Positions 2,231 through 31,926 of a DNA stretch of 64,000 bases are shown here, one piece after another. Position numbers and translations under genes: made by a program. A model generated the notes under the pieces. That model saw nothing but the letters and a program-made list of their open reading frames with translations. It was not told the DNA's origin and did no database searches. Source of the stretch: Glaucostegus cemiculus. Its lineage: Eukaryota. How positions within the stretch are numbered: position 1 is the stretch's first letter; every line of letters begins with the position of its first letter. The stretch is from the NCBI GenBank assembly GCA_976551045.1, contig CDPCPM010000104.1, positions 6,944,001 to 7,008,000 on the forward strand, given 5' to 3'.

Positions 2231-2693
2231 TCAGTAGCAAGGCCAGCAATTACTGCCAATTCCTATCTGCCCTTGGGAAGATGGTGATGAATGGCCTTGT
2301 TGAATCAATTGATACTCCTTCTGGTGAAGGTACTCCCACAGTGCTGTTGAGTAGGGAGTTCCATGGATTTGACTCGGTGATGATGATGGAGCCACAAGAT
2401 ATTTCCGAGTCAGAATGGTGTGTGACTTGGAGGGGAGTCTGCAGGTCGTGGTGTTCCCAAGCATCTGCTTGATGATAGTACTTGTGCGTTTAGAAGGTAC
2501 TGACCATTGACTAAATTCTGTGCATGTTACAGATGACACACACTGTAGCCACAGTGTGACGGTGGTGGAGGGATTGAATATTTAGGATGGATGATTGCTA
2601 GCCAATCAAGTGGCTGCTCAATCCTGGAAGTTGTCAAACTTCTTGAGTGTTGTCAGGGCTGAACTCATTCAAACAAGTGTAAAGTATTCTATC
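2231..2693 (-). mobile_element. CR1/L2-group LINE 3' fragment (second family), interrupted at 2694 and resuming at 3583-3620
   Basis: Decayed minus-strand frames with NIQSLHHRHTVATVC and SNPWNSLLNSTVGVPSPEG (WNSL RT C-terminal motif). Tail AAGGGCAGATAGGAATTGGCAGTAATTGCTGGCCTTGC. Continues across the AGTATTCTATC duplication. Confidence 0.7.
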
Positions 2694-3582
2694 TAATGAA
2701 AAACACAATGATGCTGGAGGAACTCAGCAGGCCAGGCAGTATCCGTGGAGAAAAGCAGGCGGTCAACATTTTGGGTCAGGACCCTTCTTCAGGAATGAAG
2801 GTAGGAAAAGGGGAAACCCAATATATAGGAGGGAAAATCAGAGCAGATTGTTTCTTGGTCCAGGCTCCAGCATCTACAGTCTCTTGAGCCTCCATCTGAG
2901 AGAACATTTGGGAGAATTCAATGTTCATGCCATTAGGCTGCAAGGTTCCAAGATGGAAAATGAGGTGCTGTTCCTCCAGTTTGCACTTTGAATTCTCCTG
3001 TCAGTGGAAGAGGCCGAGGACTGGATGTCCTCTTCAACTCTTACCCCTGCCAGGCCCTGTCTTCCCCCTCTCTGAGGCTGAGCAGTCTGTTCTCAGCAAA
3101 GGCCTCACCTTCATGTCTCTATGCCCCCACCTCAACGGTCAGTCCTCGGCCTCATCCATGGAATTCTCCCATTTTAAGTAAACCCCACCCCCAACAGCCT
3201 CCATGCCTCTTCTTTTCTCCCCTACTAGCTCCATGTTTTCTACTCCCCCCCCCTTTTTTCCCTCCTTACCTTTGACCCATCCCCCAGAGGATCTGCTCGC
3301 CCCTCCTTCCCCACATCTGCCTATCACTGATTCTTACCTGCGTCTACCTATCACTACCTTGTGCCCAACCCACCTCCCCTCTTTTGTCCACCTATCACTG
3401 CTCTGCTCTTCCCTCCCATATATTGGGCTTCCCCTTTTCCTGTCTTCAGTCTTGAAGAAGGGTCCTGACCTGAAACATTGACCGCCTGCTTTTCTCCACA
3501 GATGCTGCCTAGCTTGCTGAGTTCCTCCAGCATCATCGTGTTCTTCATCTAGATTCCAGCATCTGCAGTCCTTTGTTTCTCT
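2694..3582 (+). mobile_element. Internally deleted Penelope-like element with inverted termini, GIY-YIG remnants and hammerhead-like motifs; 11-bp TSD
   Basis: AGTATTCTATC direct repeat at 2683-2693 and 3583-3593. Inverted arms about 2696-2847 and 3397-3548. Minus 3021-2906 translates VLGLFH*QENSKCKLEEQHLIFHLGTLQPNGMNIEFSQ (GIY-YIG C-terminus). Plus 3065-3135 gives PLSEAEQSVLSKGLTF (PLE N-terminal motif), joined to MEFSHFK*. Confidence 0.85.
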
Positions 3583-3916
3583 AGTATTCTATCACATTTC
3601 TGATTTGTGCCTTGCAGACTTTGTTTTCTGAACTTCAAGTTTAACTTTTACAATTTCAAACCTTTCATTCAGCTTTGCTTTACCTCATCTTGTATCATCT
3701 CAAGTTCTATGATATAACCAGCCTGCAGCATAAAAAAGACAAATGACATCCCTGTACCTAACATGCAGATCCACCAATCCTTATAGCAGTCTCCATCATA
3801 CATGTCAGTATGTGTTGATCAGAAGTTGTATTATGCCAGAACTATATGAATTAGTGAACAATTTGAATTAGTGTGCCATCTTAGTGTGCCAATTAGTGCA
3901 GTATCTTTTTGCCAGT

Positions 3917-4122
3917 GTCGAAACGTCCAATACTAGAGGGCATGCATTTAAAGTGAGAGGGGGAAAGTTCAAAAGAGATTCAAGGGAGATGTGCAGGGTA
4001 AGTTCTTTACACAGAGTGTGGTGGGTGACTGGAATGTTTTGCCAGGAGTGATGGTGCAGGCAGATACAATAGATGTGTTTGAGAGGCTCTGAGATAGGTA
4101 CTGTACGGCACTATTCTACGTT
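3917..4122 (+). mobile_element. CR1 LINE 3' fragment
   Basis: ACTAGAGGGCATGCATTTAAAGTGAGAGG...TTCTTTACACAGAGTGTGGTGGGTGACTGGAATGTTTTGCCAGG encodes the TRGH.FKV...FFTQ.VV..WN.LP motif. Confidence 0.85.
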
Positions 4123-4366
4123 ATCATTGAGAACAATATCTTGGGAAGGAACATTGAAGATCTGCATTTCATTTTCCAATATGCTGGGTGACAGGACAAG
4201 TTCCTGGTCACAGTCTTTTCAACTATGAGAAGGCAAAGCTTTTCTCAACAGAAATGGATTAAAAATTCAGGGGGATGGTCATTGGAGGACAATCTCACTC
4301 TCTTCTGGGTAATCACAGTAGCAAATCCTTCAGGAGCCTTGTAAGCTGCTTTTAAACTCCACCCAG

Positions 4367-4670
4367 TTTACAAGATATTTATTTACAAGATATTTATCTT
4401 TTCAGCACATGTATATCAAAACACACAATGAAATGCGTCTTTAACACAGTGTTCTGGGGGCAGCTCACAAGTATCACCACGCTTCCGGCGCCAACATAGC
4501 CCACAACTTCCTAACCCATATGTCTTTGGAATGTGGAAAGAAACCGGAGCACCCAGAGGAAACCCATGCAGACACGGGGAGAACGTACAAACTCCTTACA
4601 GACAGCAGCTGGAATTCAACCCGGGTCGCAGGCACTGTAATAGCGTTACACTAACCACTACACTACCTGC
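4367..4670 (-). mobile_element. tRNA-derived V-SINE with MER6-like 3' tail
   Basis: Minus strand: tRNA-like head (box B GGTTGAATTCC), V-domain GGAGTTTGTACGTTCTCCCCGTGTCTGCATGGGTTTCCTCTGGGTGCTCCGG, then tail CTATGTTGGCGCCGGAAGCGTGG...GACGCATTTCATTGTGTGTTTTGATATACATGTG. Confidence 0.8.
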
Positions 4671-4703
4671 CTGGAAATAGATAGGGTAGACGGTCCGTCT
4701 TTT

Positions 4704-5356
4704 CTATGGAAACATATAAGATTCTAAGGGGTCTTGACAGGGAAAAGATATTTCCTCTTTTGGGAGAATGTAGAAATAGGAGTCGCTGTTAACAAATAAG
4801 GGTCACCATTTAAGATAGAGATGAATCAAATGTTGTCTCAGCTGGAGACACACGAGACTGGAGCAGCAAACAATCTGCTGGAAGAACTCTATGCGTCGAA
4901 CAACATCTGTGGGAGGAAAGCAATTGTCGACGTTTTGGGTTGAAACCCTGCAGATAATGTTCTGAAATGAAATGTCAACTATCCCTCTACCTCTACAAAT
5001 GCTGCCTGACCCACTGATCTCCTCCTCCAGTGGGTTCCTGATGCAGAGCTTTGGCCTGAAACATTGAGAATTCCTTTCTTCCCACAGATGCTGCTCAACC
5101 CACTGAGTTGCTCCAGCAGATTGTTTGTTTCTCTCAGATGGTTTGAGTCTTTGGAACTCATTTCCACAAAGAACAGTAGGGGAAGAGTCTATGAGTATTT
5201 CTAAGGCAGAGTTAATTAGTTCAGAACTTGATGCACAAGGGGTGAAAGGTTACCATGGAAAGAAGGGAATGCAAAATTGAGGTTGCTATCAGATCAGTAA
5301 TGATCATATCAAATTGCAGAGAAGGCATGTGGCCAACTATCCTATTCTGTGTTTAT
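4704..5356 (+). mobile_element. CR1 LINE 3' fragment split by an insertion at 4842-5131
   Basis: GAAACATATAAGATTCTAAGGGGTCTTGACAGGG (ETYKILRGLDR), resuming after the insert with GAGTCTTTGGAACTCA (LWNS) and a CR1-type 3' UTR. Confidence 0.75.
4842..5131. mobile_element. Palindromic Penelope-derived small element
   Basis: Arms about 4867-4952 and 5040-5128 are reverse complements (CAAACAATCTGCTGGA...CATCTGTGGGA vs TCCCACAGATG...TCCAGCAGATTGTTTG). TCTCAG on both flanks (4836-4841, 5132-5137). Confidence 0.75.
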
Positions 5357-5596
5357 AGGAATAGCAACAAAACCCCAGGCACAACATCAAGTGGATTATT
5401 GACAATCTGTCAAAGCTTCTGGAAAAGACTGGAGGATCTTCTGTGCTTTGATTTCAGACGATGCCCTGTAGTCTCAGTGCAGAGCTGTATCAATATTGAC
5501 AGTCCTGGCCTGTGTTATAAATTGGCTAGAAAGATCCAAATTGATCCTAAAATAAAACTGAGTGAAATTTTCTTTTGTGATATTAGTTAAAGTTCT

Positions 5597-5703
5597 GGCT
5601 TTGGAGCAGAAACAAACTGCTGGAGGAAGAGCTCAGTGAATCAGGCAGCATCTGCGGAAGCAGAGGGATAGTCGATATTTCAGTTCAGGACCCTGTATCA
5701 GGT
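5597..5703 (-). mobile_element. Penelope-derived small element fragment
   Basis: CTGCTGGAGGA..CTCAG...GGCAGCATCTG...GTCGATATTTCAGTTCAGGACCCTGTATCAGG is the same family as 13155-13329. Confidence 0.7.
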
Positions 5704-5769
5704 AAAGTTATCACTTTACCTTCATTCAACTTTCATTTCTGTTATAACAAATATTTAATCCAATGAGGA

Positions 5770-6830
5770 GAACTTGTGTAGTCTCTGGAGCTTGGAAGAA
5801 TGAGAGGTGAGGTCATTGAAAGATATAACAGTCTAAAAATGCTTGAGAAGGTGGGCAAAGAGATCTGATCCCATGGATGGATAGACTGGGAATGGAGATG
5901 GCAGGGGAGGCAGAGGGAGGTTAGATAAGATGATCCCATGGATGGATAGACTGGGAATGGAGATGGCAGGGGAGGCAGAGGGAGGTTAGATAAGATGATC
6001 CCATGGATGGATAGACTGGGAATGGAGATGGCAGGGGAGGCAGAGGAAGGTTAGATAAGATGATCTCATGGATGGATAGACTGGGAATGGAGCTGGCAGG
6101 GGAGGCAGAGGGAGGTTAGATAAGATGATCCCATGGATGGATAGACTGGGAATGGAGATGGCAGGGGAGGCAGAGGGAGGTTAGATAAGATGATCCCATG
6201 GATGGATAGACTGGGAATGGAGATGGCAGGGGAGGCAGAGGGAGGTTAGATAAGATGATCCCATGGATGGATAGACTGGGAATGGAGATGGCAGGGGAGG
6301 CAGAGGGAGGTTAGATAAGATGATCCCATGGATGGATAGACTGGGAATGGAGATGGCAGGGGAGGCAGAGGGAGGTTAGATAAGATGATCCCATGGATGG
6401 ATAGACTGGGAATGGAGATGGCAGGGGAGGCAGAGGGAGGTTAGATAAGATGATCCCATGGATGGATAGACTGGGAATGGAGATGGCAGGGGAGGCAGAG
6501 GGAGGTTAGATAAGATGATCCCATGGATGGATAGACTGGGAATGGAGCTGGCAGGGGAGGCAGAGGGAGGTTAGATAAGATGATCCCATGGATGGATAGA
6601 CTGGGAATAGAGATGGCAGGGGAGGCAGAGGGAGGTTAGATAAGATGATCCCATGGATGGATAGACTGGGAATGGAGATGGCAGGGGAGGCAGAGGGAGG
6701 TTAGATAAGATGATCCCATGGATGGATAGACTGGGAATGGAGCTGGCAGGGGAGGCAGAGGGAGGTTAGATAAGATGTTAGAATAGACATGAGGAAAGTG
6801 TTATTTATTCAGATAGTAGTGAACTTTTTG
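5770..6830 (+). mobile_element. Old CR1 fragment hosting the minisatellite
   Basis: 5770-5865 CTGGAGCTTGGAAGAATGAGAGGTGAGGTCATTGAA (SLE..RMRG..IE motif); 6778-6830 GACATGAGGAAAGTGTTATTTATTCAGATAGTAGTGAAC (D.RK..F.Q.VVN motif). Confidence 0.6.
5868..6777 (+). repeat. Minisatellite, 14 x 65 bp, purine/G-rich
   Basis: Unit ATCCCATGGATGGATAGACTGGGAATGGAGATGGCAGGGGAGGCAGAGGGAGGTTAGATAAGATG; 910 bp = 14 units, with only a few single-base variants. Confidence 0.97.
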
Positions 6831-6879
6831 ACGCCTTTAACCCACCATTGTGAACCACACTCTGATTCAAACTACCACA

Positions 6880-7100
6880 TTAACCCACTTAGCCTATCTG
6901 GGATATTCCCTTTATTTAACCTACCTGTGCTCCAACATCCCTGCTACTGAAACTAACTTGTTTTCTTTCTTTCCCAGTTCTGATGAGGGAGTTCAGACCT
7001 GAAACATTAACTGGTTCTCCTCCCACAGATGCCATCTGACCTGCTGAGTCTTCCCAGCATTACCTGCTTTTATTTCAAATTTCCAGCATCTGCCATTTTT
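6880..7100 (+). mobile_element. Penelope-derived 3' tail element with hammerhead-like motif at 6974-7014
   Basis: CCAGTT-CTGATGA-GGGAGTTCAGACCT-GAAAC-ATT-AACTGG followed by the family tail CACAGATGC..CTGACCTGCTGAGT..CCAGCAT...TTCCAGCATCTGC. Confidence 0.75.
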
Positions 7101-7134
7101 TATTTTTATTTTCATTAAAAGGTAAATCATAAAA

Positions 7135-7388
7135 GGGCGGCACGATAGCGTAGCGGTTAGCGCGACGCTGTTACGGCGCCAGCGATCGGGGTTCGATTCC
7201 CGTCGCTGTCTGTAAGGAGTTTGTACGTTCTCCCCGTGTCTGCGTGGGTTTCCTCCGGGTGCTCCGGTTTCCTCCCACATTCGAAAAGACGTACGGGTAG
7301 GTTAATTTGGGGTTTAAAATGGGCGGCGTGGACTCGTTGGGCCGAAAGGGCCTGTTACCACGCTGTAAGTAAAATAATTTTTAAAAAA
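7135..7388 (+). mobile_element. Young V-SINE (HE1-like) with CR1-type tail
   Basis: Box A TAGCGTAGCGG (7146-7156), box B GGTTCGATTCC (7190-7200), V-domain, tail TTGGGCCGAAAGGGCCTGTTACCACGCTGTAA; CpGs intact. Confidence 0.9.
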
Positions 7389-10295
7389 TGGGTTGGGAGT
7401 GAGGCATTGCAGGTAGAGAAACTTGAAGAGAAAGGACAGGGTATCATTTGGAAAGGGAAACAGTACTTCAGGGGCAGATTGGGTCATGGGAACAGGCAAG
7501 TGTCAATCTGGTATTTGTGGGGTTAACTAGAATCAGGCACATGGGGGTGGGATCCACATTGTTGGTTTGGTGGGGGGGGGGTGGTTTGCTAGAGGGTGTC
7601 AATGGACAGTTCCCATGAGGATCTAAATGTAATTTGAAATAAGACACAGCTTGCACATTCTGTAACCTATGCATTTGTGATAAAAAATAGCACACAGGCC
7701 CTCCATACATTATCCCACACAGGAAACTAGAAAGCAAAATTACAGACCACAATCTCTAGTCACTTCTTGATTTACAGTAGAACATTATGTGACAGAACTT
7801 ATAGTCCTCAATAGAAAAACAAAGTGCTAAATACTTCATTGCTGAGAGGACAGCGAAAGTGGAAATATTAAAGTTATATTCTGCACATGTGGTCAGGAAG
7901 ATTATCCAACTCTCCTGCCCACCATCTTCTCAGCTCAGTCATTCAAAAGACTTCCCCTTCATAATACCAAACTGTTCCTCAAAACAGTTTCAGAGGTCCA
8001 GTCCATTTCTCGATCAATCTTTTCACAAGAAAATAGCTTCCAAACATTCATCCTAAATTTACCTTGCATTTGGTTCAGCTGCTGAGCTTCAGTTCAGTCT
8101 GAAGAGTGTTTTGGACTGAAGTGATCCAGACTGCACTGGGTGCAGTCAGTCAGATCACAGCCTGTGTTACAGTTGGCTTCAGCATTAGTAGGATAGGATA
8201 AAGAGAAAATAATTGGATGATAATCTCACTCTTGACTGCTGCTTGTTGACCACTGGTGGAAATATTTGTGCATGTGGCACACATACATATTCATGTGAAC
8301 AGGTTCTGGCCTGACTTTTATACTTCCCATAATCTACCATCACTTCCAGTCCATATGCTATAAAAACAATTTGCATTTGTGCAGTATATTTAATGTGGGA
8401 CAAATTCTAAAGTACTACACAGGTTATCAAATAAAGCTCACATATGAAGGATGACTCTTTGGATTAAGTCTCATCATGTACCAAATCAATACCAGGAAAA
8501 ACAAGGGGTAAAATTAGAAAAGAAAGAATCAAATTATTTCTTTTAAATCAGCATAAGTACCTGCCTTGAGTGAGGTAAACTGTTCAGCTGCACAGCCAGG
8601 AAACAGTGGGTGGAGAGAAAAAAGCATAACAAAGGGAAGGGGCTAGTGTGGCAGAAAGAATTACCAGGGAAAAATGAAAGAAATTGTTAATACATTCATT
8701 TCAGAAGATCCCATAAAGCAAAATGGAAAATCTAACCCCAAATGAGAATTGAAGGCACTGATGTTTTAGAACACAGTCCATAAGGTTTTAATCAAGTTCC
8801 ATCAGAACTTGTAGAAATTCCATCAGTTTCAGGTATATTTTATTTCTCATAATAGGGAGAGGGAAGGAAATATCAGAAAATCAGGTCTTCTGTTTATTTG
8901 CAGAGGATGAAACATGGCCTTTATCTCACAAACTCTGAAGAGCTCATGTTTTTTTTTAAGTAGGTCTCGCTGCACTGCCACAGTTTCCTGCCTGGTGTAC
9001 ATGTTCATCATAACTTTTTTGCATCTGTCTCCCCACGTTCCTTTGAAGAGTCTTTGACCCGGTAAGTTGAACATTCTTGGACTATGCTTCTTGAGCAACA
9101 TATTGACATCTCTGTGTTCTGTGACACAGACATGAGGTTCCTTTTTCTGTTACCCAGATGTTTCTGTTGGTAGGGAACATAGCGACAGCCTCCATGCTGG
9201 GCAATGTTGAAACCAGAGAGCCTTGAAGTCCACAGTTTCTAATCAGTGTTGAAACTCTTTCTAACTTAGGGCCTTTACCATCCCTGACAGATTAAAGGGT
9301 CTGCAGCCAGGATGGCCTTTCCGCAGTCTTCCTTAGACCACCCCAAGATGACCTGGCACCCTAGAGTGCACCTGCCATTAAGCTTAAATGCTATAATGTT
9401 CTTCTTCTTTGATGTGATCTTACAATGAACCCAGTGACCTTTGATGGTACTTTATCTTACATGTGTTCTTGTAGGACACAAAATGAGTTCCTTTAAAACA
9501 AGTAGAGATATCCATTCAACAAGGTTGTTTTAATTGTAGGCAAATACATCTGTGACCTCCATCTCTTACTAATTACCTATTTACTTATGTAACAATAGGC
9601 ATAATATCGATGAACACATTATGACGCATCATGTTAACAAGATTTTTTATAATCACTGGAAAAAGGAGTAAATTTTTTACAGGTCTAATATGTTCTGCAC
9701 AATAGATTGAGAAATGACAAGGATAACAGATTGCTGGATGTGCATTACAAAGACAGGAACACACTAGGACAGGAATACTTCAGTTACAATTTAAATATCT
9801 TTGTAAAGATTCCATTGAATAGAACTATAAATATTTTCTAAAAATACTCCAACATGTATTGAGCTAGATATTTTTGACATGTACAGCAAGAATTTAGGGT
9901 CATTAGCTCCCACTTTTTGTGCTATGCACAGACCACAAAAATAATGCACAGGCAAGCATATGTACATTTGTTGGCATCGTACCTGATGCCATGTTGGCAT
10001 AGATACGTGTGCAATGCAATAAATTGCAGCCATCCGAATGGAGATTAGAAGAATCTTGATGCCGCTCATTGTGAACTACAAAGTTGTCACCAGTGTCACC
10101 ATTTTGGAACTAAACACTCCAGCCAACACCCACTCTTGACCTCATACGGCTGAGCAGGTGCTCAGCAGAAAAAGGACATCCCCTACCATTGCAATTTATT
10201 GTAAACATGAAATACTTCAGGTTAGTAGCTGGCTGTTTTTTCTTCTGCCTGTTGTCAAAAATCTGTAAGGAGTTGATTCTTAAGATACAAGACAG

Positions 10296-10470
10296 AACAT
10301 ATAACATAGAAAACTACAGCACAATTCAGGCCCTTCGGCCCATAAAGCTATGCCAAACATGTCCCTAACCTAGAAATTATTAGGCATACCCATAGCCCTC
10401 TATTCCACTCAGCTCCATGTACCTTCTAACAGTTTCTTGAAAGACCCTATCGTATCTGCCTCCACCACTC
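10296..10470 (-). mobile_element. CR1 LINE 3' end
   Basis: CATAGAAAACTACAGCACAATTCAGGCCCTTCGGCCC is the reverse complement of a CR1 tail; same subfamily as 22540-22650. Confidence 0.8.
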
Positions 10471-10595
10471 AGATACAAGGTATTTATTTATTAGTCACAT
10501 GTATATCGAAACACACAGTGAAGTGTATCTTTTGCGTAGTGTTCTGGGGCAACACAGCATGCCCGCAACTTCCTAAGCCCTACATCTTTGGAATT
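10471..10595 (-). mobile_element. Partial V-SINE, MER6-like tail
   Basis: GTCACATGTATATCGAAACACACAGTGAA...GTGTTCTGGGG...CAACTTCCTAA matches 4400-4530. Confidence 0.7.
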
Positions 10596-10982
10596 GTTCA
10601 ACGTTGTGCAAGTCTATAGGGAGTGACATGGTAGATGCTGGAGGAACTTTATCTGATTACAAAGTTGCTGCACACACCAGTTTCTGCCAGACATCCATTA
10701 GTGCACATTCCAAATGATAATACAATCTGACCAGCAGAATGAGTAGGGCACAGAGAGAGTGCAGCTCAGTCTACTGAAAGAGGGCAGGAGAATGGCTCTG
10801 AGCCTGAGGCCATGTTTCTCCAAGTGGTCAAGGATCAAGTAAGCCACCTAAACCACAATGAGGAACAATATGTGAGATATTTGCACTTCAATAAGGAAAC
10901 CAGGGTGCCCAAAGTTTAACTTGCTTGTAGGTGTCAAGATGATATATCTTTTACTTGTCAGACTGCTTCAAGGTTGGAGACC

Positions 10983-11408
10983 AGAATCAGAATCAGGTTT
11001 ATTATCACTGACATATATCATGAAATTTGTTGTTTTGCGGCAGCAGTACAGTGCAAGGCATAAACATTACTATAAGTTACAAAAATAAATAAATAGTGCA
11101 AAAGAGGAATAACAAGGTAGTGTTCGTGGGTTCATGGACCATTCAGAAATCTGATGGCGGAGGGGAGGAAGCTGTTCCTGAAACATTGAGTGTGGGTCTT
11201 CAGGCTCCTGTACCTCCTCCCCGATGGTAGTAACGTGAAGAGGGCATGTCCCGGATGGTGAGTGTCTTTAATGATGGATGCCGCCTTCTTGAGGCGCTGT
11301 CTCTTGAAGATGTTGGAAAAGGTTGTGCCCATGATGAAGCTGGCTGAGTCTACAACCCTCTGCAACGTCTTTCAATTCTTCGCATCGAAGCCACCATACC
11401 AGGCTGTA
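10983..11408 (-). mobile_element. Rex1/Babar-clade LINE 3' fragment
   Basis: ORF 11132-11365 ...KAASIIKDTHHPGHALFTLLPSGRRYRSLKTHT..FRNSFLPSAIRFLN; (GATTCT)n tail. Confidence 0.88.
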
Positions 11409-11779
11409 GTAGTTTTAACATTCATTTTTGTGTAATAGGTTCTCCAGTCAAAGAAATGTCATTTTCCTTTATCAGAGAAAAGACCCCATTTTCTGATGAT
11501 AGAATGCCATTAGCTATGCTAACATAGCACTATGGACACCACATATCAACTCTGCCATATACTGGAACTGAGAGGGATTATGTTCTCTCACTGTCCAAAT
11601 TAGTGACAGGATATGCTCTGATATCCTGGCTGCAGACAAGATGCCTTCCTTCTGGTGCACCCAGCTGTACTTGAATCATCATGATACACTGAAAGGTAAC
11701 TATCTGCTGAGGACAATGCCAGCACCTGGCTCTGTCGGTAAAACTCCCCCCTCAGAGACAGAAGGGTCTGGGCTCAAGT

Positions 11780-12051
11780 GGGCGGCACGATAGCGTAGCG
11801 GTTAGCGCGACGCTGTTACAGCGCCAGCTATCAGGGTTCAATTCCTATCGCTGACTGTAAGGAGCTTGTACGTTCTCCCGTGTCTGCGTGGGTTTCCTCC
11901 GGGTGCTCTGGTTTCCTCCCACATTCTGAAAGATGTGCGGGTAGGTTAATTTGGGGGTTTAAAAATGGGCGGCGCAGACTCACTCGTTGGGCCGAAAAGG
12001 CCTGTTACCACGCTGTAAATAAAATTTATAATTTAAAAATTTATAAAAAGT
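11780..12051 (+). mobile_element. V-SINE (HE1-like), same subfamily as 7135-7388
   Basis: Near-identical head, V-domain and tail; AAGT on both flanks. Confidence 0.9.
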
Positions 12052-12117
12052 CAAACTCCAGAGCCAATACTGAGGTTGGCACACTGGAGCTGTAGTGAGG
12101 GACTGCTGCACTGTTGG

Positions 12118-12745
12118 GATATTGGTATTGGTATTGGCTTATTATTGTCACTTGTACCAAGGTACAGTGAAAAACTTGTCTTGCATACCATTCATACAGA
12201 TCAATTCAATACACAGTGCATTGAGGTAGTACAGGGTAAAAAGCAATAACAGAATACAGAGTAAGGTGTCACAGCTACAGGGAAGTGCACTGCCAGTTGA
12301 CAATAAGGTGCAAGGTCAAACAAGGTAGATTGTGAGGTCAAGCGTCCATCTCATAGTATAAGGGAACTGTTCAATAGTCTTATCACCGTAGGAAAGGAGC
12401 TGTCCTTGAGCCTGATGGTATGTGCCCTCAGGCTCCTGTATCTTCTACCTGATGGAAGAGGAGAGTAGAGAGAATGACCCGGATGGGTGGGGTCTTTGAT
12501 TATGCTGGCTGCTTCGCCAAGGTAGCAAGAGGTCCATGGAGGGGACCATGGACCATGGACTCCAGGGACCATGGACCATGGACTCCAGAGTCCATAGAGG
12601 GGAAGCTGGTTTCCGTGATGTGCTGGGCTGTGTCTACAACTCTCTACAGTTTCTTGTGGTCCTGGGCAGAGCAGTAGCCATACCAAGCTGTGATGCATCC
12701 AGATAGGATGCTTTCTATGGTGCATTGATAAAAGTTGGTGAGTGA
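12118..12745 (-). mobile_element. Rex1/Babar-clade LINE 3' fragment (second subfamily)
   Basis: ORF 12351-12725 ASIIKDPTHPGHSLYSPLPSGRRYRSLRAHTIRLKDSSFPTVIRLLN; upstream frame FYQCTIESILSGCITAWYG; (CCAATA)n tail at 12121-12137. Confidence 0.88.
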
Positions 12746-13154
12746 TGAGATTGCTGAGGAGATGATGCCTTTCGAGATAAGATGTTAAACCAAACCACTT
12801 CCATTCTCTCAGGATGTCATAGAGGATTCACTTCAGTGACGAGACCACAGGTTATCCCTGAGGATAATCTCAAGCAACTCTTGGTACAGAAGGCCCGACT
12901 GTAGATTTCAGTATCCTGACCTGGGCAGTTTTATTGTGGACTGAATGGTTGAGAGGCAACAGTAAGGGCCTTGGATGAGTGGCTGGGGTCAGCTTTCCTG
13001 AGATGAGATAGAAGTTCATGCTCAGAAAAGCACTGCCTTTCCCCTGGAATAGCTCCTCAGTAATCTGGGTAATCTGTTGGAGTACAGTGACATCATGCAA
13101 GCACCTTTGTACACTGTAATCCACAGCCATGAAAACAGAAGTATAAGTTTGCAT

Positions 13155-13329
13155 TAACACACACAAAGTGCTGGAGGAACTCAGCAGGTCAGGTCATTGA
13201 TGAAGGGTCTCGACCCAAAACATCAACTGTTCATTTCCCTCCATAGATACTGCCTGACCTGCTGAGTTCCACCAGCACTTTATATGTGTTGCTTCAGATG
13301 CCAGCATCTGCAGAATTTCTTGTGTCTCT
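13155..13329 (+). mobile_element. 175-bp Penelope-derived element with 5' inverted arm and 14-bp TSD
   Basis: GTATAAGTTTGCAT at 13141-13154 and 13330-13343. Arms 13156-13193 and 13253-13290 are inverted. TGATGAAGGGTCTCGACCCAAAACATC lies in the loop. Confidence 0.88.
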
Positions 13330-14276
13330 GTATAAGTTTGCATGACAACAGGCTGAGCTTCCTCTGCAACCCTCATGTTAATGTTGCTTGTACTGCAAAG
13401 GAAGTGGCTGGGACTGGAGATATTGCTAAAGGAGTTGGTCACCTCCACCATATGGGACGGAATGATCTCCAAACTCTGTACCATGCTCAATAGCAAATCG
13501 AGGCTTGAGGCTTCCAAATGCATCAAACATTTCTTTAAGCAGTCTTCTTCTGGAGGCTACCTGGTTAAATTCCTCCAGTTAGTCCTCTGCAGGAGATCCT
13601 GAGTGCACCCTCACTCTCAGGTGAACTCCCACCTCGGCACTACCTTTGGCCATAGTCTGGCTGAAGCCCACTTGTGTCAATTATCTCACTGCATGCAGTT
13701 TGTCACTTTAAGTTATCTCTTAAATTCATATTGATATTGATATCTGAGCTGGCAGTTTTATGTATGATGGAGAGTAATGGTGCTGTGGTGCTATTATGTT
13801 TTATTATTGTTATTCTACATTCATACATTTCCATTTTGAGAATGCTATTTGTATTTTCTCTTTAGGACAGTATACAATTCTGAGTATTTTGGGCATGGCA
13901 ATAAAACAGCCCTTTTTAAAACATTATGCTTGGAAGAGAATTTGTATGATTTACTGCAGATACAAGGGCTGAACATTTTCAGTTTCTGCATGTGCTTGTC
14001 TCATCCTTAGCCATAAAGCTCCTGGGCTAGCTGGGTGTCAGAATGGAGAAGGCACCAGTGTTAGATAATGGTGACAGCAGTGGGGGTAATGTAAGAAGGA
14101 TGTGTCAATCAGAAACTGTGAGGTAAGTAAAATTAAGATCAGGGAAAAGGACAATGTATGAGAATACAGTCATCTGCAATTGATTCAGCAATATTACTGG
14201 CTATGATCTGAACTCTTGCTGTCCGGTAATGGCCAGCACAGTCTCCATGGGAGTTAGGACATGCAGGTACAGCTGC

Positions 14277-15530
14277 CACCTTCATATTATTCATTCTACC
14301 CTTTAGATGTGCATCACTTTGTCCTGGGCAAGTGGATCAATGAATGCTGTTCAATCCATTTTGATAACATCAATGTAATGCTTGATTAGCTGGCACTGTG
14401 CAAACTATGAGCAAAGAATATAATGCTCACAGCAGCACCGAGTACGTAAAGGTGCAGTAGAGCATATAAACATTGCAATATTGGCCTCCTGTCAATGTAT
14501 CAGCCAATGAACAGGGAGTTATCACTAATTCAGGAACATAAAGATAGCATGCTGTTTTCTTTGCAATCAACGGGCATGGGTTAATTGCACAATGATCATG
14601 ATGTGCAGTCAGCCCCTGCTGATCGAAAAGCAAAAAAAAACTACAGATGCTGTGAATATGAAATAAAAACAGAAAATGCTAGAAACACTCAGCAGGTCAG
14701 ACAGCATCTGTGGAGAGAGAAACAGAATTAACATTTCAGGTCAATGACCTTGACATCACTGCACATTGAGAACAATTCAGCCCCACTACTACACATACAG
14801 TAACACTGTTTCCTGTCACACTTGCTTTGACCAGATTTAAAATAGAAATAGTCAGGGTTATCACTGGAATGGAAAAACACTTACGTCTCAGGATAAAATT
14901 TACCCATTGATTTGTCCTTTACAATTTTTAATTCATTCACAGTCTTAGCCTATCTAAAATGTTTGAGCTTCAACTCTGGCCTAGAAATTGGATTGCATCC
15001 TGCCACATTTTAGTACATGTGTGACTAAACTTAAAAGAAGAACCACTAGCAAAGTAAGTTGCTTGTAATACTGTAAGTTCCATGCAATTCCTTATTTTCC
15101 TTCCAGGCCTTCCTTTGCCTCACATGCAAGCACATGGCTAAGCCTGGACAAAAACAGTAAAATGCTACATCCATGATTTATATCAGCACGCGTGTCGCAT
15201 TAATCTTGTGAGCCTCTTATATGGATCAGGGTGGCTCAAACTGAGGACTCCAGCACTGGAAACCCACTTTCATATGTTCCTGAATTAGTGATAACTCCCT
15301 GTTCATTGGCTGATACAGGAGGCCAATATTGCAATGTTTATATGCTCTACCTCACCTTTACGTGCTCGGTGCTGCTGTGAGCATTATACTCTTTGCTCAC
15401 AGTTTGCACAGCGCCAGCTAATCAAGCATCACATTGATGTTATCAAAATGGATTGAACAGCATTCACTGATTCACTTGCCCAGGACAAAGTGATGCATAT
15501 CTAAAGGGCAGAATAAATAATATGAAGGTG
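14277..15530. repeat. Long inverted repeat: arms 14277-14540 and 15273-15530, 732-bp spacer
   Basis: Manual alignment gives about 12 substitutions and one 6-bp indel over about 260 bp. Confidence 0.95.
14630..14760 (-). mobile_element. Penelope-derived tail fragment
   Basis: ACAGATGCTG...AAATGCTAGAAACACTCAGCAGGTCAGACAGCATCTGTGGAGAGAGAAACAGAATTAACATTTCAGGTCAATGACCTT. Confidence 0.75.
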
Positions 15531-18500
15531 ATATGAAGTAGATATTTGTGAAATAAAATACTTCAACTTGTTGACTGTCATCCTCAGGAAACCCACCCAC
15601 TAATTCTCACTCTGGTTTTGACTGCTATTCCCCAGGCCCACCTGAACTCCCAATATTCTCCATCCTGACTCTACCCCAAAACACCCATACCTGTCTCCAA
15701 TCCAACTCCATCTGTCTTTTGTGACAAACCTCCCTATCAATGGTATTTGAGGTCCTAATTCTACCCCATCTGGTGCTGAGACACTTCCATATCTGTCTAT
15801 TCTGGGGCATCAGTTGAGTGCATAAGGACCTCAAGGGTCACTGGTGATGGTAGGGGTGTGGATCAGTAGGAATTTTGATCAGCAGTTGGGGGTTGTGGGC
15901 AGATGGCGAAACCAAGAGGAAACTGCAACAAAGCTGAAGTATCCTCCTTAAAGAACCCTTGCCTTGAGCCATTATTTACCAGCAAGCACTTACGTGCTCA
16001 AGTCTCCAGCAGATCACTTGGAAGGCTAATGAAGCAGACCTCACAAGAACCATGAAAGCTTTCTTCTGTGTGAGTGATCTGTCCTGCCTGTGAGTCACGA
16101 GTGTGTGAATCAAACTAGCAGGTGTGGTGCCCATGCAGTTAGACACCACTATCATCCACAGATTATTCCATGAGGTTAGTAGTCAGGCACATGGAACTCT
16201 GGAAGGAAAATCACAAGTTCCCCACACCTGCACCCCATGATCTAGACTTCCTACACCAGAGGATTTTACAGCAGCTGAGCCACAAAGTATTCACTGGCCC
16301 ACTGTGCACTGCAAGTTTTATGCTCTTTTCTACATGCCATATAATGTCCAGGCCTCATCCTATATGATATTTGATGGACTTTTCAATCACACCCATGCAA
16401 TCTGTGTAATCTTTTTTGGGTCTCCCAGTGTGCAATCAGAGCTCCAAGCTCAGAGGGATATGTTCTCTTGTTTACCGAGAATCTTAGAATGTCCTTCCTT
16501 TTTGAAGTGAATGTGAAAGAAAGCATAGATTAAATTCTGCAGGGGGTGAACTTCCCTGATTTTGGCACATTTACAATGGAAGAATCCCACAGGTAAATCT
16601 TCCTGACAGAATTTCTGGTTGAATTCAATTTCAACCAATTCCAAACATTCAAAGCTGCCCCTTCAACCTTGTTGTACTTCTCGACACCCTTTTTGCAATT
16701 TGCCGAGTCCAACTGACTTCACTAATATGTAATACAAATACGTTAGCAACCTAGACTGATAAGTAAAAGGCACCACAATTGACTGTGTCAGCTAATACAT
16801 TTGAATACCATTTTTTATTACCAACTGAAATGCTTTGTTGGCCACTCGCCATTTCATCAAAGATGCAGCTCTGTTACTCATTGCTACACTCTTCTCTCTG
16901 AGAATGTTACTCCACACAACTTTTATGTCACAGGTTTATTTCACAGAAATACAAGGGCAACTATCAGATTCCTTGCTAACTTCCAAGACAGAACAATCAC
17001 CATGGCTTCCATTATCAAGTATCATAGGATACGAATGGTTTGAAGGTGGGAGATATCCCCTTTGGTGGGGAGGGGTGGATGGGGAGGGAGGGGGGAGGGT
17101 CAATCCATATTGGCATTGTGCTGTATTTACCTTGGTAACAGTTAAGTAAGAAGGAGGTCTGCTTTTAAATGTGTAGGTAACATAGGTGAGTTGAACTTTG
17201 GTAATGATGACTTTATTTTGCATTTTAATGGGAAAAAACTTACCTTGTCATAAAGCAAGTCTGCATTCTGTGAACTGAGAGCAGGAACACTCACTCAGTC
17301 TGTTTACATTATAAGCATTGGTAATGTGTGTAAAGCTCATTCTGACTTGAGATAATTCAGATTGGAGATTGGTAACATAAATAAGAAACCTCGTCTAGAA
17401 CAAGTTCAGCACCTACTGGCTTAATGCTTGCTCTAATGAAACCTAAAACAAATTTTAATTAAAAATAACAAACAAGCAGATGCTGTTAATATTTTTTTGC
17501 TGGAAGCAATTCTTGAAACTAAACAAATAGCCTTCAGAACCAATTTAATGGCAAATAATCAGATATATGTCAACTGATTCAGCAACTATGATAAGATTGT
17601 AGCATAACTTTGCTTCATGTGGCATTTGTTAAAAAGTTATCCCACAACATGTGATATAAAGTAAGAGCCTGACTTTAAGAAAATAGTGATTATCTCATAC
17701 AAAATGTCAGAGTCTGAACTAAAACAGGCAATCCTGGAATGAGAAAGAAAATTCTACACAGTCAATTCGGCTACCTCACCTTCTGCAGGAAGTTTTTATG
17801 TAACACACACACATAATATTTTGAGTTACCATTTGTACTCTCCCATTGTGTCATTAGCATTAAGATAATCCCCTGTGCTTCCTCATCACTTTAATAACAT
17901 AACTATTAAAATGCATTGCAGTGGCATCTTACAAGTGACTTTTGTAACTCTTTGTTATTTTGTAATGGAATCAAACTACTTCAGCAATGAAAGTGAAAAG
18001 AAATTATAACATCTCACATTGTTATATATTCCAAGTTCACTGACTAAAATACTTTCTATCCTGTATCACGAAAATGTTAGCTACCTGCAGAGTGCGCCTT
18101 ATCCAGACTTAAAGATTAAATCTACCAATGGCCACATTGTCTGCTTATGTTCCAGAGGATAGGAGCTGTAAGAAAAATAACAGTCTGTATCCTTTCTGCA
18201 AAGATGCGCAAGTTAATGAATGAGCTAAATTTATATTTACCATAAACCAGAGCAAATTGTCAGATTCCAGGGTTTACAAATATTGCAATATTAAAATATT
18301 CTTTAAAACCTGCAAAGGAGACAGTCCTTTATACCAGCTTGAATATTGTAATATTTGAATGTATTTGATATATAAGTAGTAAGAAGAAAAAGAAAATAAC
18401 TGGTTTAAGATAATAAAGTGCATCAAAAGCTTTCATTAATGCTCAGCAGTTACCATGTGACATTAACATTGCAAAGCTTAACCTATTTCAATGAAATTAT

Positions 18501-20864
18501 TTTTCAAACAAAGGAAAAAATAAACAGATTAATGCTACCTTTGAAATGGCAGAGGAAGCAGTTTCTCACAAAGTATATGTACAATAGTACAACATAGTTG
18601 TATTTTCCAGGGATTTATTTCTGAAATATTTAATGAACCTCTGGAAATATTTTCCAGAAATCTAAAATGCACCGTATTTAACATTAGTTAATATTAAGTG
18701 CATACAATGTTTATTATAAATATGGTACAACTCAAAATAAATACTCAAAAAGCTGGACTGGCATCAAAAATTCTGAATTCATGCCTGACAACTTTGTAGA
18801 GATTAGTAAACTGAATAATTTAGATATTTAAATCTAAACACAAATTATCGAGATTTTTTAAAAAACTTTCCCATTCCTCTATTCTGGTAATTTAACACAA
18901 AAATATTCCATCAGAAATCGATGTCTGAGGATTTTCAATATTGTTAACTGGGGATCCTTTTTGTCATGTTAACTAGAATTTTGAGAATCTGTTAATTAGT
19001 ATTTGGGGGAACAATTTAACCTCTCATCAGTGCTTCAGATGTCACTTCTGCAATTAACCAATATTACTCAATATTTTGAGATCCATTCTATCATTAACAA
19101 ATCCCTGCCAATAACCATTGCTTTGATTAATTCCGTTATTAAAAACAGTTTTGATTCATTCTGTCACTAATCAGTGTTATGTTGATACTATCCGTCATCT
19201 TCTCTCTTTTCTGTGCAGAGATAGGTCTGACAATGACTTGGTACAAAATATTCCATTTTGATGCATGGTACTCTACTGCTGTTTTAAGAATTATGTTCTC
19301 TCTTAAGCTTCCTAAGCCAGAATGTGTTACCAATGTTCAGCATTCATCAACATATTTGATTGCCTGATTTATTTATCAAAGTTATTTATCTTTTAATTAG
19401 GTTGCATCATCGTATTTTTCAGCCTTTTGAAAGAGGATAATTAAGCTTTGATTCCACACAATTCCATGGCAAAAGAATTGAAAATGGAAAGGTAGTGGCT
19501 TAAATACAGTCTAACATCTGGTACCACTGTGCTAGAGTATATGTGGCAGCCTCCCTCCCTGTTTTAATTAAAGACTTCTGTCAGAAATGCCCACCTAAAT
19601 GTTTGGAAAATTACATTTTTCTGTACATTATTTATCTGTTTTGATTTGTTGAGAAATGCACGACCAGGGTCTTTCAAAATTTTGAAAAAGATGTTGACAA
19701 CTAACACCTTATATAAATGAACTTGCTTCTACCCTTCATTTTTCCATTATTGACTTTCCTCTTGAGCTACCACACACAACATCAATGAGATGAATCTGCT
19801 AGTCGATAGTTAAGTCTTGGGTTAATTAGCTAAATGAAAATAAAGAAAAGGGCTTTATACTGGATGAATCTGCAGGACAACCTCCCATGCAAATGTTGAT
19901 GGAACTATTTCTGAACTTTCTTCAAAGGTTCTGCTTACAAGTCAGGGTAACCCTTGAATGACAAATAGTTTAATCTGCACAGCCATAGCATTTTAAATTG
20001 CTGTTTGGACCCCCACCCTTTAAATGTTTTCACCCAGCAAAACAATATTGTTTTAATAATTTTTCTCCAGAGATTTCAACTTAATTTCACCTAAAACTGC
20101 ACTTACAAAATTAATGAAAACAACAATTGGACTGACTCACTAATACCTTACTGATAAGAAAATGAAAACTAGCTGTTTCAGCCACCAGGTCAAATATGCA
20201 TTTTAATCAAGTTATTAAGATCTCTTTTCTGCTAAGCATAAGATCATTTGGATTTTCACAACAGGCATTCCTCGGGGTCCCTTCTTCAATGTGCTTAATT
20301 TTCTATTGCACTGGTTGGAAGTCCAAAAATAACCTAATTTTTAACTTGTTCTGAGAGAACAGTAAACTCACAGGAGGCTAACTTCTCTTCTCCAGTCTCC
20401 AAGGTGAAGAGATGACATACTATCCAGTTACTGCTTTTGCTCATGATATTGAATACAATGCATTAATTCATTCAATCACTATTTTACCATACCCAGACTT
20501 CTTAACTGTATGCATGTGTACATAGGAATGTTTTGTCCTAATTGAATGAAAACTTTTGCTATATTTATTATTGCTGCTGAAAACTTACTAAATAAACACA
20601 AAATATTAACTTTTTTTTACTTCCTTGCTGCCTATTTTAGAGGCAACTTTCCAAATTCCGTGGCATTGCCAATATTTCCCCCTAAATATTAGTAGTTGTT
20701 TATTAGATGTGAATTAAGTATATTTTTGTACTAATTAATGTCAAAATACTTGTTATAAATTAGAGTTTTACACCAACGAACTAAGAAAACGAACAATATA
20801 ACTGACAAATTACAGTGGATAACTTTAAAAATTTCTATAATCAAAACTGTTACTCTTCTTACAT

Positions 20865-21235
20865 CTGTGAACAAGGTCATTCGGCCTATCAAGTCTATCT
20901 CAGATCCCAGAGCATCCCCATCAGTCCCATTCCCCCAAGTGTTTCCCTGTAAACTATCCTACTCCTACCTGCAGTGCATGAACACTAGGATTTAGAGTGC
21001 CAAAGTAACCTATCATACAAAGGAAAACAAATAAGACTGCAGATACTGGACCCTTAAACAACAACAGAGAGGCTGGAAGAACTGAGTCAAATAACATCTG
21101 TGGAAAAATAAACCAGTTAATGTCTCAAGTCAAAGAACCTTCATCAGAACCTATTAACCATGATGTCTTTGGGATGAGGGAGGAAACCAATGCAGTCACA
21201 GGGAGGACATGCACATTCCACACATACAGCACACA
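20865..21235 (-). mobile_element. Decayed V-SINE interrupted by a Penelope-derived fragment at about 21016-21150
   Basis: CR1-like tail GGTCATTCGGCCTATCAAGTCT at 20876; V-domain remnant GTCTTTGGGATGAGGGAGGAAACC..GCAGTCACAGGGAGGACATGCACATTCCACACA. The insert has CTTCATCAGAAC, and AACCTAT occurs at both junctions. Confidence 0.65.
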
Positions 21236-21745
21236 GGAGATTTGGTATGTCACCAAAGGCTCTTGCAAATTTCTATAGATGTACGGTGGACAGCATCCTG
21301 ACCGGTTGCATCACAGGCTGGTATGGAGCCTCCAATATATAGGATCAATCACAAGAGCCTGCAGAGGGTTATAGACTACGCCAGCTCCATCACGGGCACA
21401 ACCCTCTCCGCCATCTAGGATATCTTCAGGAGGCGGTGCCTCAAGAAGGTGGCGTCGATCACTAAGGACCCCCATGATCTGGGACACGCAGTCTTCTCGT
21501 TATGACCATCAGGGAGGAGGTACAGGAGCCTGAAGACCCACACTCAATGATTCAGCAACAGCTTCTTCCCCTCCCCATCAGATTTCTGAATGATCCATGA
21601 ATCCATGAACACTACCTCATTTTTCCTTTTTTTTGCAATATAAATATATTTCTGTAATATATAGATTTTATATCTTTGCACTACTTCTGTTGCAAAACAA
21701 CAAATTTCATGTCATTATCAATGGTAATAAATCTGACTCTGATTC
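21236..21745 (+). mobile_element. Rex1/Babar-clade LINE 3' fragment (same subfamily as 10983-11408)
   Basis: Encodes FYRCTVDSILTGCIT...ITKDPHDLGHAVFSL*PSGRRYRSLKTHTQ*FSNSFFP; tail CTGACTCTGATTC. Confidence 0.88.
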
Positions 21746-22945: not shown

Positions 22946-24752
22946 TACCAATAATATTATAGCAGGATACCAAAGTTTGAAGCCTATAGTGGGCAAGGTA
23001 CATTATGCACAAAAAATATTATAACTGAACTTTTAAGGATGGTAAAAAAAAGAATTATAATACACTTTCTCATTTTCATTTTGTGGTGTCCACAGAATTA
23101 TTTTCAATAAGATGTCGATCTGGTGTCAGCCACCTGGTGATTACACTCAGTAAAGGTTTGTAATAACCAAGGTTGGTTTTTCTATCGATTCTCCCATCAT
23201 TATATAAAAAAAACACCCCTTTCTCCAGATGATCAGCGATGCTGACTTCAAATGATTTTATGACTAGTCTGAAGCACAGGCGAGGCATTCTGATCCTGTA
23301 CTGGTAACTGTTCCTATGTGGAGAGAGGTGTGGAGGAGGATGCCTTCTCCTTTGCAATATGTGAAAGAAAATATGGACATACTTGTTCTTAGGTTTTACA
23401 TATCATAATTTAACTGTGCTCCATAATCATAAGAGAAAAAAGTTTCCATATATGTACTCTTGCCTTGAGACATAACTTACCGCCAAGTTTAATGCATTAG
23501 ACATTTTTACTTTTACTTGTCTTCTATAAAAGGTTCTTTATTTTTCACTCCTAGCTTTTCCAAGCATATTAAATTCCAAACACAAAATCCAATTCAAGCA
23601 TAATTATAAACCAGAGTAAAATTTCAATGCCATTTCTATTTCCTACCATGTACTTAAGTACCTGTTCCATACCTAACAGTTGAACAGAAATTTCTGATCC
23701 AAGAATAAAATGTTTCCTAATTCCTTTGATACTCAAATCAATTCAAACATCCTCTACCAACTTTCATGGTTGGTCATGTTTCATAGAAATAGAAAATTGT
23801 TATGATATAATTTTCTCTGTTGTTTTGTTAAGTTTAATTGCTGAATAAAAATTATTTTAAATGTTTTGGATTGCTTTTGTTGTGACAGTTGTTGTTTGAT
23901 GCTTGTAAGTAGCCTGGGGCAAGGCTTTGCTAACAGATGATTGGTCATTCCAAACTTTAAGCTAACTCTTTCCTGAGAGAATGGATCAAGGTTTATTATG
24001 TGAGTAGATCCATTCTGAATGAATAACACCTTTCTGTCCACTCTCTGATCACGATGTTCAGAGAAAATTTTCAGAAAGGAAAAGTTTGCAACTGTTATTC
24101 AATGAACAACTCCTTGAGGTATTCAAGGTTGGAAAATATTGAATCAACCTGTGGTATTTCCTCCTTCCTCGAGGCTGGCATCCTGTCCTTCTCACCACTC
24201 TCAGAGAACCCAGCTGAGAATGGGTCTCCTAGAGCTTTGTTCATATTGCAGCTGAGATTTAGCCCTGAGTCTAGTTAAAAGTGGCAATCAGCAGCAGGGA
24301 GAAAATTGATGACCAAAAGATTGGCAGCCCCATCCACTAACCAACCCTACCACAGATCATAGTCATATTGCCCAGAGCTCTTTTTCATGCTCTAACTTTG
24401 TCTCCAAGGACAAACCAGCCAAGAGTAACACCACAGTTAACAAGAATTAGTCAGATTTCATGAGAAATCGGAATGACCTGGAGACCCACAGAGATGCATG
24501 TGAAGAACTAGGGTGGGTTGGTAAGGTTGTCATGAAGGAATGGAAATGAAAGCTTTGCAATGAGAATCCCAGAGTATCCATATGGGAGCAGGAGGTAGCT
24601 TTCAAGGAAACATTAATAAGCTAAGTGCACTTGCGTACTTGAACCCCCTGCCTCCTGCTTCCCCCTCCCCCCTCCCCCCATGCACTTTGATCCTGTTTGC
24701 TGCCAGATTTCATTGGTAGGTTTGAGCTTTCATTGGACCTGCAGTTAAAATT

Positions 24753-25003
24753 GGGCGGCATGATAGCATAGCAGTTAGCGTGACGCTGTTACAGCACCAG
24801 CGATAGGGGTTCGATTCCCGTCGCTGTCTGTAAGGAGCTTGTACGTTCTCCCATGTCTGCGTGGGTTTCCTCCAGGTGATCCGGTTTCCTCCCACATTTT
24901 AAAAGACATACGGGTAAGTTAATTTGGGGGTTTAAAATGGGCGGCGAAGACTCATTGGGCCGTAAGAGCCTGTTACCACACTGTAAATAATTTTTTTAAA
25001 AAT
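24753..25003 (+). mobile_element. V-SINE (HE1-like)
   Basis: Same head, box B GGTTCGATTCC, V-domain and tail as 7135-7388, with more CpG decay. Confidence 0.9.
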
Positions 25004-25159
25004 TTAGTATATGATTTTGCCATTTTCATTAAGACTTCATAATTCTGAGATGGGTATCTATATCATTAGGTCTCTTACCAGATTTAAGGCTAATTCAATT
25101 TGTATAACATGGAAATGAGCAGGAGTGTGTCATGAAGTAACATCCCACTACACATACAT

Positions 25160-31778: not shown

Positions 31779-31926
31779 NNNNNNNNNNNNNNNNNNNNNN
31801 NNNNNNNNNNNNNNNNNNNNNNNNNNNNNNNNNNNNNNNNNNNNNNNNNNNNNNNNNNNNNNNNNNNNNNNNNNNNNNNNNNNNNNNNNNNNNNNNNNNN
31901 NNNNNNNNNNNNNNNNNNNNNNNNNN
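31779..31926. other. N run (gap or masked simple repeat)
   Basis: 148 N; right flank CTATCTAT suggests a (CTAT)n repeat. Confidence 0.95.

Follow-up and report, generated by a model that had tools for sequence, protein, structure and literature searches.

Decayed minimal hammerhead motifs in putative terminal repeats of Penelope-like elements of Glaucostegus cemiculus

Results

The window analysed here is a stretch of 64,000 nucleotides of Glaucostegus cemiculus DNA (GenBank assembly GCA_976551045.1, contig CDPCPM010000104.1, positions 6,944,001 to 7,008,000), in which a dispersed family of short motifs resembles hammerhead ribozymes. A first-pass annotation, made from the letters alone, had described nine such motifs between 2760 and 21151 as minimal hammerheads of small Penelope-derived elements, and all nine were found at the coordinates and on the strands that it gave. 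They are very probably decayed minimal hammerheads in the pLTR, the terminal repeat, of endonuclease-bearing (EN+) Penelope-like retrotransposons (PLEs) of several subfamilies, carried on likely short, often inverted products of reverse transcription that were inserted singly by the protein of the parent element. The nine motifs are genuine yet ordinary: mutated remnants of a hammerhead that is predicted to cut itself in the parent element.

The motifs are homologous beyond the motif itself. About 90 nt of common sequence follow each of them downstream, and the homologous unit of about 130 nt aligns across the nine copies with pairwise identities of 53-89%. A profile built from the nine copies was searched against the window, with the reversed window as control (best match E 1). 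It recovered a tenth, partial copy absent from the earlier annotation (4958-5030, plus strand, E 1.6e-11), an inverted arm (13135-13193, minus strand, E 1.6e-8) and a tail piece (2842-2887, plus strand), and no hammerhead copy in the window past 21.2 kb. The copies form seven insertions, listed here with their parts (TSD, target duplication; C3, first core base; ORF, open reading frame; UTR, untranslated region).

2694..3582, both strands: composite PLE insertion, inverted pLTR arms around coding fragments; TSD 2683-2693 / 3583-3593, 11 bp
2760..2797, minus: tailless left-arm hammerhead; C3 at 2792, predicted cut 2765/2764
2842..2887, plus: tail-only pLTR piece upstream of the ORF N-terminal fragment; profile E 4e-4
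2908..3033, minus: C-terminal end of a PLE GIY-YIG endonuclease with one in-frame stop; 38% to protein P0114, E 5e-6
3068..3136, plus: PLE ORF N-terminal motif; 48% over 23 aa to P0114 residues 89-111, E 1e-5
3447..3484, plus: hammerhead of the right arm, after a pyrimidine-rich 3' UTR, the tail then running to 3582; C3 at 3452, predicted cut 3479/3480
4846..5131, both strands: three-piece insertion, made of a minus-strand arm with tail, a plus-strand partial copy of another subfamily and a plus-strand arm without tail; probable TSD 4836-4845 / 5132-5141
4924..4955, minus: hammerhead truncated inside the core, starting at about +4; predicted cut 4929/4928; 7/13 core matches
4958..5030, plus: tenth, partial copy, starting in stem II; partial tandem ahead of the 5033 copy; 82% to the 5668 copy
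5033..5070, plus: hammerhead copy with a junction 2-7 nt before C3 (5038); predicted cut 5065/5066
5595..5702, minus: solo 108-nt insertion (motif 5668-5702), starting 1 nt before C3; TSD 5588-5594 / 5703-5709, 7 bp
6974..7014, plus: best-kept copy, with 12/13 core matches, a 6-bp stem I and a damaged stem II; no clear TSD
13155..13329, both strands: fold-back insertion, an inverted tailless arm (13155-13193) joined at most 3 nt from C3 to a tailed hammerhead arm (motif 13197-13229); TSD 13141-13154 / 13330-13343, 14 bp
14617..14776, minus: solo insertion with tail (motif 14722-14760, 6/13 core matches); TSD 14609-14616 / 14777-14784, 8 bp
21014..21147, minus: solo insertion with tail (motif 21113-21151), starting at C3 (21147) with two further bases ambiguous; TSD 21007-21013 / 21148-21154, 7 bp; a fragment of a short interspersed element (SINE) adjoins

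The link to PLEs comes from the first of these insertions. Between its arms, and inside its target duplication, sit coding fragments from both ends of a protein with reverse transcriptase (RT) and GIY-YIG domains. When 152 retrieved proteins were compared with the window by tblastn, 127 of them matched the endonuclease end at 2908-3033. P0114, a protein of 813 aa with RVT_1 and GIY-YIG above the Pfam cut-offs, matches both coding fragments. The two short fragments themselves, like P0001 and P0002, had no match in Pfam (0/4), and the single match of the fragments in PDB (E 0.71) was disregarded. Judged by its sequence, the unit of about 130 nt is the terminal repeat of EN+ PLEs. The marks of the Neptune clade are a Cx2-5CxxC linker between RT and endonuclease and the RT phylogeny, and the relatives P0114, P0052 and P0023 carry the Cx3-4CxxC linker given for Neptune. 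The parent element is thus likely a member of this clade, an assignment made indirectly, since linker and RT are absent from the stumps in the window. P0031, P0086 and P0023 are predicted host proteins (a G-protein-coupled receptor, NYAP and DUF4518) with a fused PLE endonuclease end; these fusions are probably gene-prediction artefacts from the same repeat.

An exact scan, compared with 3000 random draws, found TSDs of 7-14 bp at five of the seven insertions, one of them weak. The probable duplication of 4846-5131, absent from that scan, was recognised by eye (9 of 10 positions). Head-to-head arms with a tail on one side only make up three of the seven insertions, those with the TSDs of 11 bp, 14 bp and 9 of 10. 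Duplications of at least 10 bp occurred in 9/3000 draws and of at least 12 bp in 0/3000; the 8 bp of 14617-14776 are the weak case, at least 8 bp being reached in 209/3000. A 7-mer is shared by two abutting 14-nt windows at a chance rate of 125/19,675. In self-BLAST, the arms of the composite insertion (2691-2846 against 3554-3398) are 88% alike over 157 nt. Those of 4846-5131 are 80% alike, and the piece between them matches the 5668 copy at 82%; pieces of two pLTR subfamilies within one insertion suggest template switching between different RNAs. The 14722 copy is flanked by an inverted pair of another kind, 14277-14540 / 15273-15530 (264 bp, 93% alike, about 730 bp apart).

The earlier claim that no copy is intact was borne out, no locus of the window passing a minimal-hammerhead descriptor at 0 or 1 core mismatch. 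At 2 core mismatches four loci pass, three of them family copies, against 1-4 per shuffle (n=6 shuffles). The single motifs are therefore not above chance as ribozyme patterns, and the case for them is made by homology and by the family majority. Each copy matches the core at 6 to 12 of 13 positions, and an Rfam search of the window at E<=5 found no hammerhead family (3 unrelated matches, all under gathering scores). Decay at CpG, also proposed before, is evident, as the CpG of the ACGU palindrome has become CA, TG or TA in 9/10 copies. The 11.1/G12 position reads TG or CA in 10/10, TG being possibly native to the 6974/14722/21113 group.

The perfect 6-bp stem I described at 6974-7014 is present; at 21113 the bases taken as 5' arm belong to the target duplication. 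The 5668 motif exists, with the element starting 1 nt before its core, and in the 13197, 4924 and 5033 copies, motifs that are likewise present, a junction replaces the 5' arm.

Copies 2760 and 3447, 89% identical, differ at six motif positions, four of which are complementary CpG changes. The lesions of the former are stem I position 2795, G12 and 15.2, those of the latter C3, 11.1 and 16.2. Combined by script, the two copies yield a full core whose minimum-energy fold has stems I and II (-7.0 kcal/mol). An intact CUGANGA / GAAA / NUH core occurs in this reconstruction and in the family majority and in no single window copy; the family majority has the whole core with its bulged base, the G10.1-C11.1 pair and the palindrome 15.2-16.2. 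For the bare 38-mer, the dimeric hammerhead fold has -9.3 kcal/mol, against -24.1 for the best co-fold. The ten window copies pair in a register-specific manner (64.5%, falling to 23-51% in shifted registers), with stem II paired at 79.6%, as counted on an automatic alignment that misplaces gapped copies. The covariation of stems I and II expected by the first-pass annotation did not emerge from the same alignment of ten copies, the score being 0.224 against 0.197 +/- 0.034 shuffled, with 109/500 shuffles as high; two-sided changes occur in 6/10 pairs, 86/500 shuffles being as high, with few and strongly decayed copies. The window copies are most likely inactive and decaying neutrally.

Five of the 12 pieces start within -7..+4 nt of C3 and none at the predicted cut site, which all ten motif copies span. 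Two of the starts are fixed by TSDs, at -1 (5668) and at 0 to -2 (21113), and three are junctions, at -3 to 0 (13197), -2 to -7 (5033) and about +4 (4924). In the alignments of related organisms described below, 12 of 417 joints are listed with known intervening letters, and in 8/12 one arm joins at most 20 letters from the core start; that table is biased, because arms from other subfamilies do not align when they are longer. No boundary was read from joints that end at 2794 or start at 3453, since an adjacent mismatch of the window copy would cause clipping there. A pyrimidine tract ending in CAG, inside the stem I 5' arm, is found at 6948-6977, 3432-3449 and 2795-2812, mutated in the 2760 copy, and a branch-point-like word lies upstream of the 6974 copy. 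It is possible that tract and CAG act as a 3' splice site or as an initiator; initiators follow the pattern YYANWYY, which CAGTY of stem I fits.

For the wider family, RNA reads (two runs) and contigs (two sets) from related organisms were aligned to 2640-3620 at 80% likeness. The numbers aligned, 74,040 and 60,979 contigs and 11,990 and 16,698 RNA reads, indicate a very large family. The C3 position 3452 is C in 91-96% of family reads or contig depth, with the stem I base at 2795 intact in 89-97%. Reads leaving the reference at 3494 (1,062 and 1,495) continue into an intact second half of the motif with an agreement of 0.71-0.72, that half comprising the stem II 3' arm, GAAA, CG, U, C and the stem I 3' arm. 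Summed contig depth in contig set X1, which is no copy number, was 0.32-0.74 million for the endonuclease end, 0.59-1.3 million for the pLTR and 1.7-4.1 thousand for the ORF N-terminal piece. Depth of the same order on the endonuclease end and the pLTR, and about 100-fold lower on the N-terminal piece, is what 5'-truncated copies from an autonomous parent would give.

RNA ends at the cut site, the earlier proposed sign of cleavage, did not appear in the two RNA runs of relatives, there being no pile-up there or anywhere in 2640-3620, a weak result as the protocol of the runs is unknown. The RNA reads lie on both strands, 91-92% of them run on into unlike sequence, and we think that the RNA signal is mostly read-through of scattered copies. 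Provided that the library has the usual strandedness, there is a possible sense excess of 1.2-1.9-fold on tails and 2-4-fold on the 3' UTR. The 15 of 543 joints listed include none of circular RNA, nor of unit-length RNA ending at the cut site. A fold-back joint from 2784 to 3492 was seen in both RNA runs only (24 and 22 reads, 23 and 18 of them on one side) and is probably one transcribed locus of a related organism. Pattern scans of viral contigs and metagenomes for the hammerhead motif found 0 loci.

Discussion

Minimal hammerheads have been described in the pLTRs of metazoan PLEs, as single dispersed motifs and as opposite-strand pairs (Cervera and De la Pena 2014, PMC4209133; comparisons here and below are with the accessible portions of the papers cited). 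By sequence, the hammerheads of the window are of this kind. Like those, they are type I, with CUGANGA and GAAA, one bulged base before stem II, G10.1-C11.1, a loop-less palindromic 15.2-16.2, a stem I of 4-6 bp and several families per genome, and most are single dispersed motifs, with some opposite-strand pairs 100-700 bp apart. Unlike those, they have a stem II of 5 bp, and the accessible portion of that paper is silent on a shared 5' boundary at the motif. Cartilaginous fish are named neither there nor in two of its supplementary files. Our literature search, with subscription papers, Repbase and Dfam outside its scope, found no paper on the motif in cartilaginous fish or on copies starting at the motif.

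The insertions around the motifs have the marks reported for PLEs, namely inverted pLTRs, a one-sided tail of 30-40 bp, short TSDs and solo pLTRs (Craig 2021, PMC8557442; Arkhipova 2013, PMC3846280). With the Neptune-type EN+ PLEs of the same papers they share the GIY-YIG C-terminal end, 5' truncation, head-to-head arms, a one-ended tail and solo pLTRs. The TSDs are 7-14 bp here and 8-10 bp there, and, unlike those elements, the window holds stumps only, without linker or RT. The closest functional comparison is Poseidon of Anolis (PMC11167929), which also has a hammerhead upstream of the tail that marks RT starts, inserts copies of uncleaved RNA and lacks RNA-seq ends at the cut. It differs in belonging to another clade and in its protein-assisted activity, shown there and predicted here. 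The earlier reading, a minimal type I hammerhead with a loop-less palindrome, of Penelope origin, abundant and in several subfamilies, is upheld.

Published work on other PLEs suggests how such pieces could arise. The GIY-YIG endonuclease of the parent element would nick AT-rich target DNA, and reverse transcription would start within the RNA, at tail sites downstream of the hammerhead. An early stop of copying, or a template switch, could then leave stumps of 110-175 nt and fold-backs. We infer that the template is uncleaved RNA, because 10/10 motif copies cross the predicted cut and 0/12 pieces begin at it. In the Anolis element, reverse transcription starts internally at the tail, insertion does not require hammerhead cleavage and RNA-seq ends were absent from the cut site (Frangieh 2024, PMC11167929, accessible portion). 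This in vitro evidence that PLEs insert without prior cleavage of the RNA agrees with the motif copies, all of which span the cut site. The ribozyme is predicted to cleave in the parent RNA only, as a dimer through the ACGU palindrome or helped by the protein of the element. Dimer cleavage of minimal hammerheads has reportedly been described, by Lunse et al. according to a review.

Several observations weigh against assigning the motifs to EN+ PLEs in this way. The 64-kb window contains no RT domain and no full-length element, so that the parent is known from fragments, and coding sequence occurs in only one of the seven insertions, the other six being without any. Covariation is not significant in the ten window copies. 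The DNA sets share only 0.22-0.25 of the words of the window and the RNA runs were chosen by species label, and hence the runs represent relatives and not this locus; support for G12 and for the ACGU CpG in the 2760/3447 subfamily falls among 194 variant rows outside the listing. The clustering of 5' ends is poorly accounted for by random truncation; compared with uniform truncation over 130 nt, it has a P of 0.003 with a bin chosen afterwards and uncorrected.

That clustering raises a possible, if doubtful, alternative, in which the short copies are complete run-off cDNAs. PLE RNA would begin at CAGTY of the stem I 5' arm, which would resemble an initiator or serve as 3' splice site, the latter as in Drosophila virilis Penelope; a SINE-like unit with fixed ends would result. 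The five 5' ends near C3 and the eight joints close to the core start are as such a unit would have them, and CAGTY not only fits the initiator pattern but follows a pyrimidine tract in 2760, 3447 and 6974. In the D. virilis element an intron ends at helix I (Cervera and De la Pena 2014, PMC4209133). The start site of that element lies about 120 nt upstream. However, three copies reach further upstream and one starts in stem II, the joint table (12 of 417 listed) is biased, and the RNA runs show neither a 5' end pile-up at CAGTY nor, in the 15 of 543 joints listed, splicing to that AG. RT stalling on the folded motif or on a bound protein would give an identical pattern. Moreover, the protein of the anole element needs RNA beyond the RT start (Frangieh 2024, PMC11167929, accessible portion), and thus solo copies may be unable to move again. 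It is tempting to go further and propose that in these fish Penelope RNA starts at the hammerhead, with the stem I 5' arm serving also as start site, and that reverse transcription from the first tail runs off after 110-130 nt. SINE-like units fixed at both ends would then be produced en masse from uncleaved RNA, and might move again without tandem arrays or circles. We consider this fuller proposal speculative and rather unlikely.

The first-pass annotation had favoured a distinct non-autonomous family akin to retrozymes, which would cleave itself, circularise and be mobilised in trans. Non-LTR (long terminal repeat) retrozymes (Cervera and De la Pena 2020, PMC7229834; Li et al. 2026, preprint) resemble the copies described here in being short, in their type I hammerhead, in their relation to pLTRs and in the occurrence of dispersed monomers, and pLTR-derived retrozymes are reported from one chondrichthyan genome (Li 2026). 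The short size, high copy number and several subfamilies would also fit, as would the single partial tandem at 4958-5070. That tandem, however, is without half of the first core, and the window holds no tandem array of the unit. Retrozymes are described with head-to-tail arrays, at least two complete motifs, mostly canonical hammerheads and circular RNA (accessible portions of PMC7229834 and Li et al. 2026), none of which was seen here. PLE coding fragments lie in insertion 2694-3582, the cut site bounds none of the copies and was free of RNA ends, and 91-92% of aligned RNA reads continue into unlike sequence, like read-through of scattered copies. A dedicated family of this sort is improbable and the claim is not supported; the copies are terminal pieces of EN+ PLEs, none of them in a tandem array.

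Chance likeness to a hammerhead, inside a repeat conserved for other reasons, would account for single copies no better than shuffles, for a covariation score reached by 109/500 shuffles and for the missing Rfam match, but is very improbable given the family majority with its whole core, bulge, G10.1-C11.1 and palindrome (unselected features listed by Cervera and De la Pena 2014, PMC4209133, accessible portion), the register-specific pairing (64.5% against 23-51%; stem II 79.6%) and the published place of the motif in the pLTR. A DNA transposon or miniature inverted-repeat element as source of the fold-backs was rejected, their arms being unequal, containing pLTR and having no terminal inverted ends on the tail side. 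A host-gene function was rejected too, Pfam searches of 24 of the 49 long ORFs giving two matches, both under cut-off.

As decayed PLE hammerheads, the motifs extend by one genome a class known since 2014; what can be used is the record of insertion ends. Should the 5' clustering extend to the whole genome, the stopping points of PLE reverse transcription would be mapped by tens of thousands of copies. This would provide a handle on the making of pLTRs and fold-backs and on the purpose of the hammerhead.

Surrounding sequence

The first 25 kb of the window are rich in repeats of other kinds. A 65-bp minisatellite at 5866-6777 has 14 copies, 98% alike, and its unit is without a hammerhead. A SINE-like family of about 260 bp occurs at 7130-7389, 11776-12043, 24746-25006 and 4511-4665, with a fragment at 21158-21230 (81-89% alike); it is probably of the tRNA-derived HE1/V-SINE type of sharks and rays, and ARAGORN found no tRNA. 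Retroelement fragments of other kinds lie at 10984-11364 / 21360-21745, 12596-12763 and 1856-2230 and are presumably LINE-like (long interspersed element). A CTGATG...GAAAC match at 11151, considered as a copy of the hammerhead family, lies in one such fragment (profile E 0.17) and was rejected. From 25,500 to 64,000, self-BLAST found no dispersed repeat, and these roughly 38 kb are repeat-poor and AT-rich, in which they resemble, as we assume, the surroundings of developmental genes. Three assembly gaps of 148-168 N lie at 31779-31926, 36797-36964 and 52112-52263.

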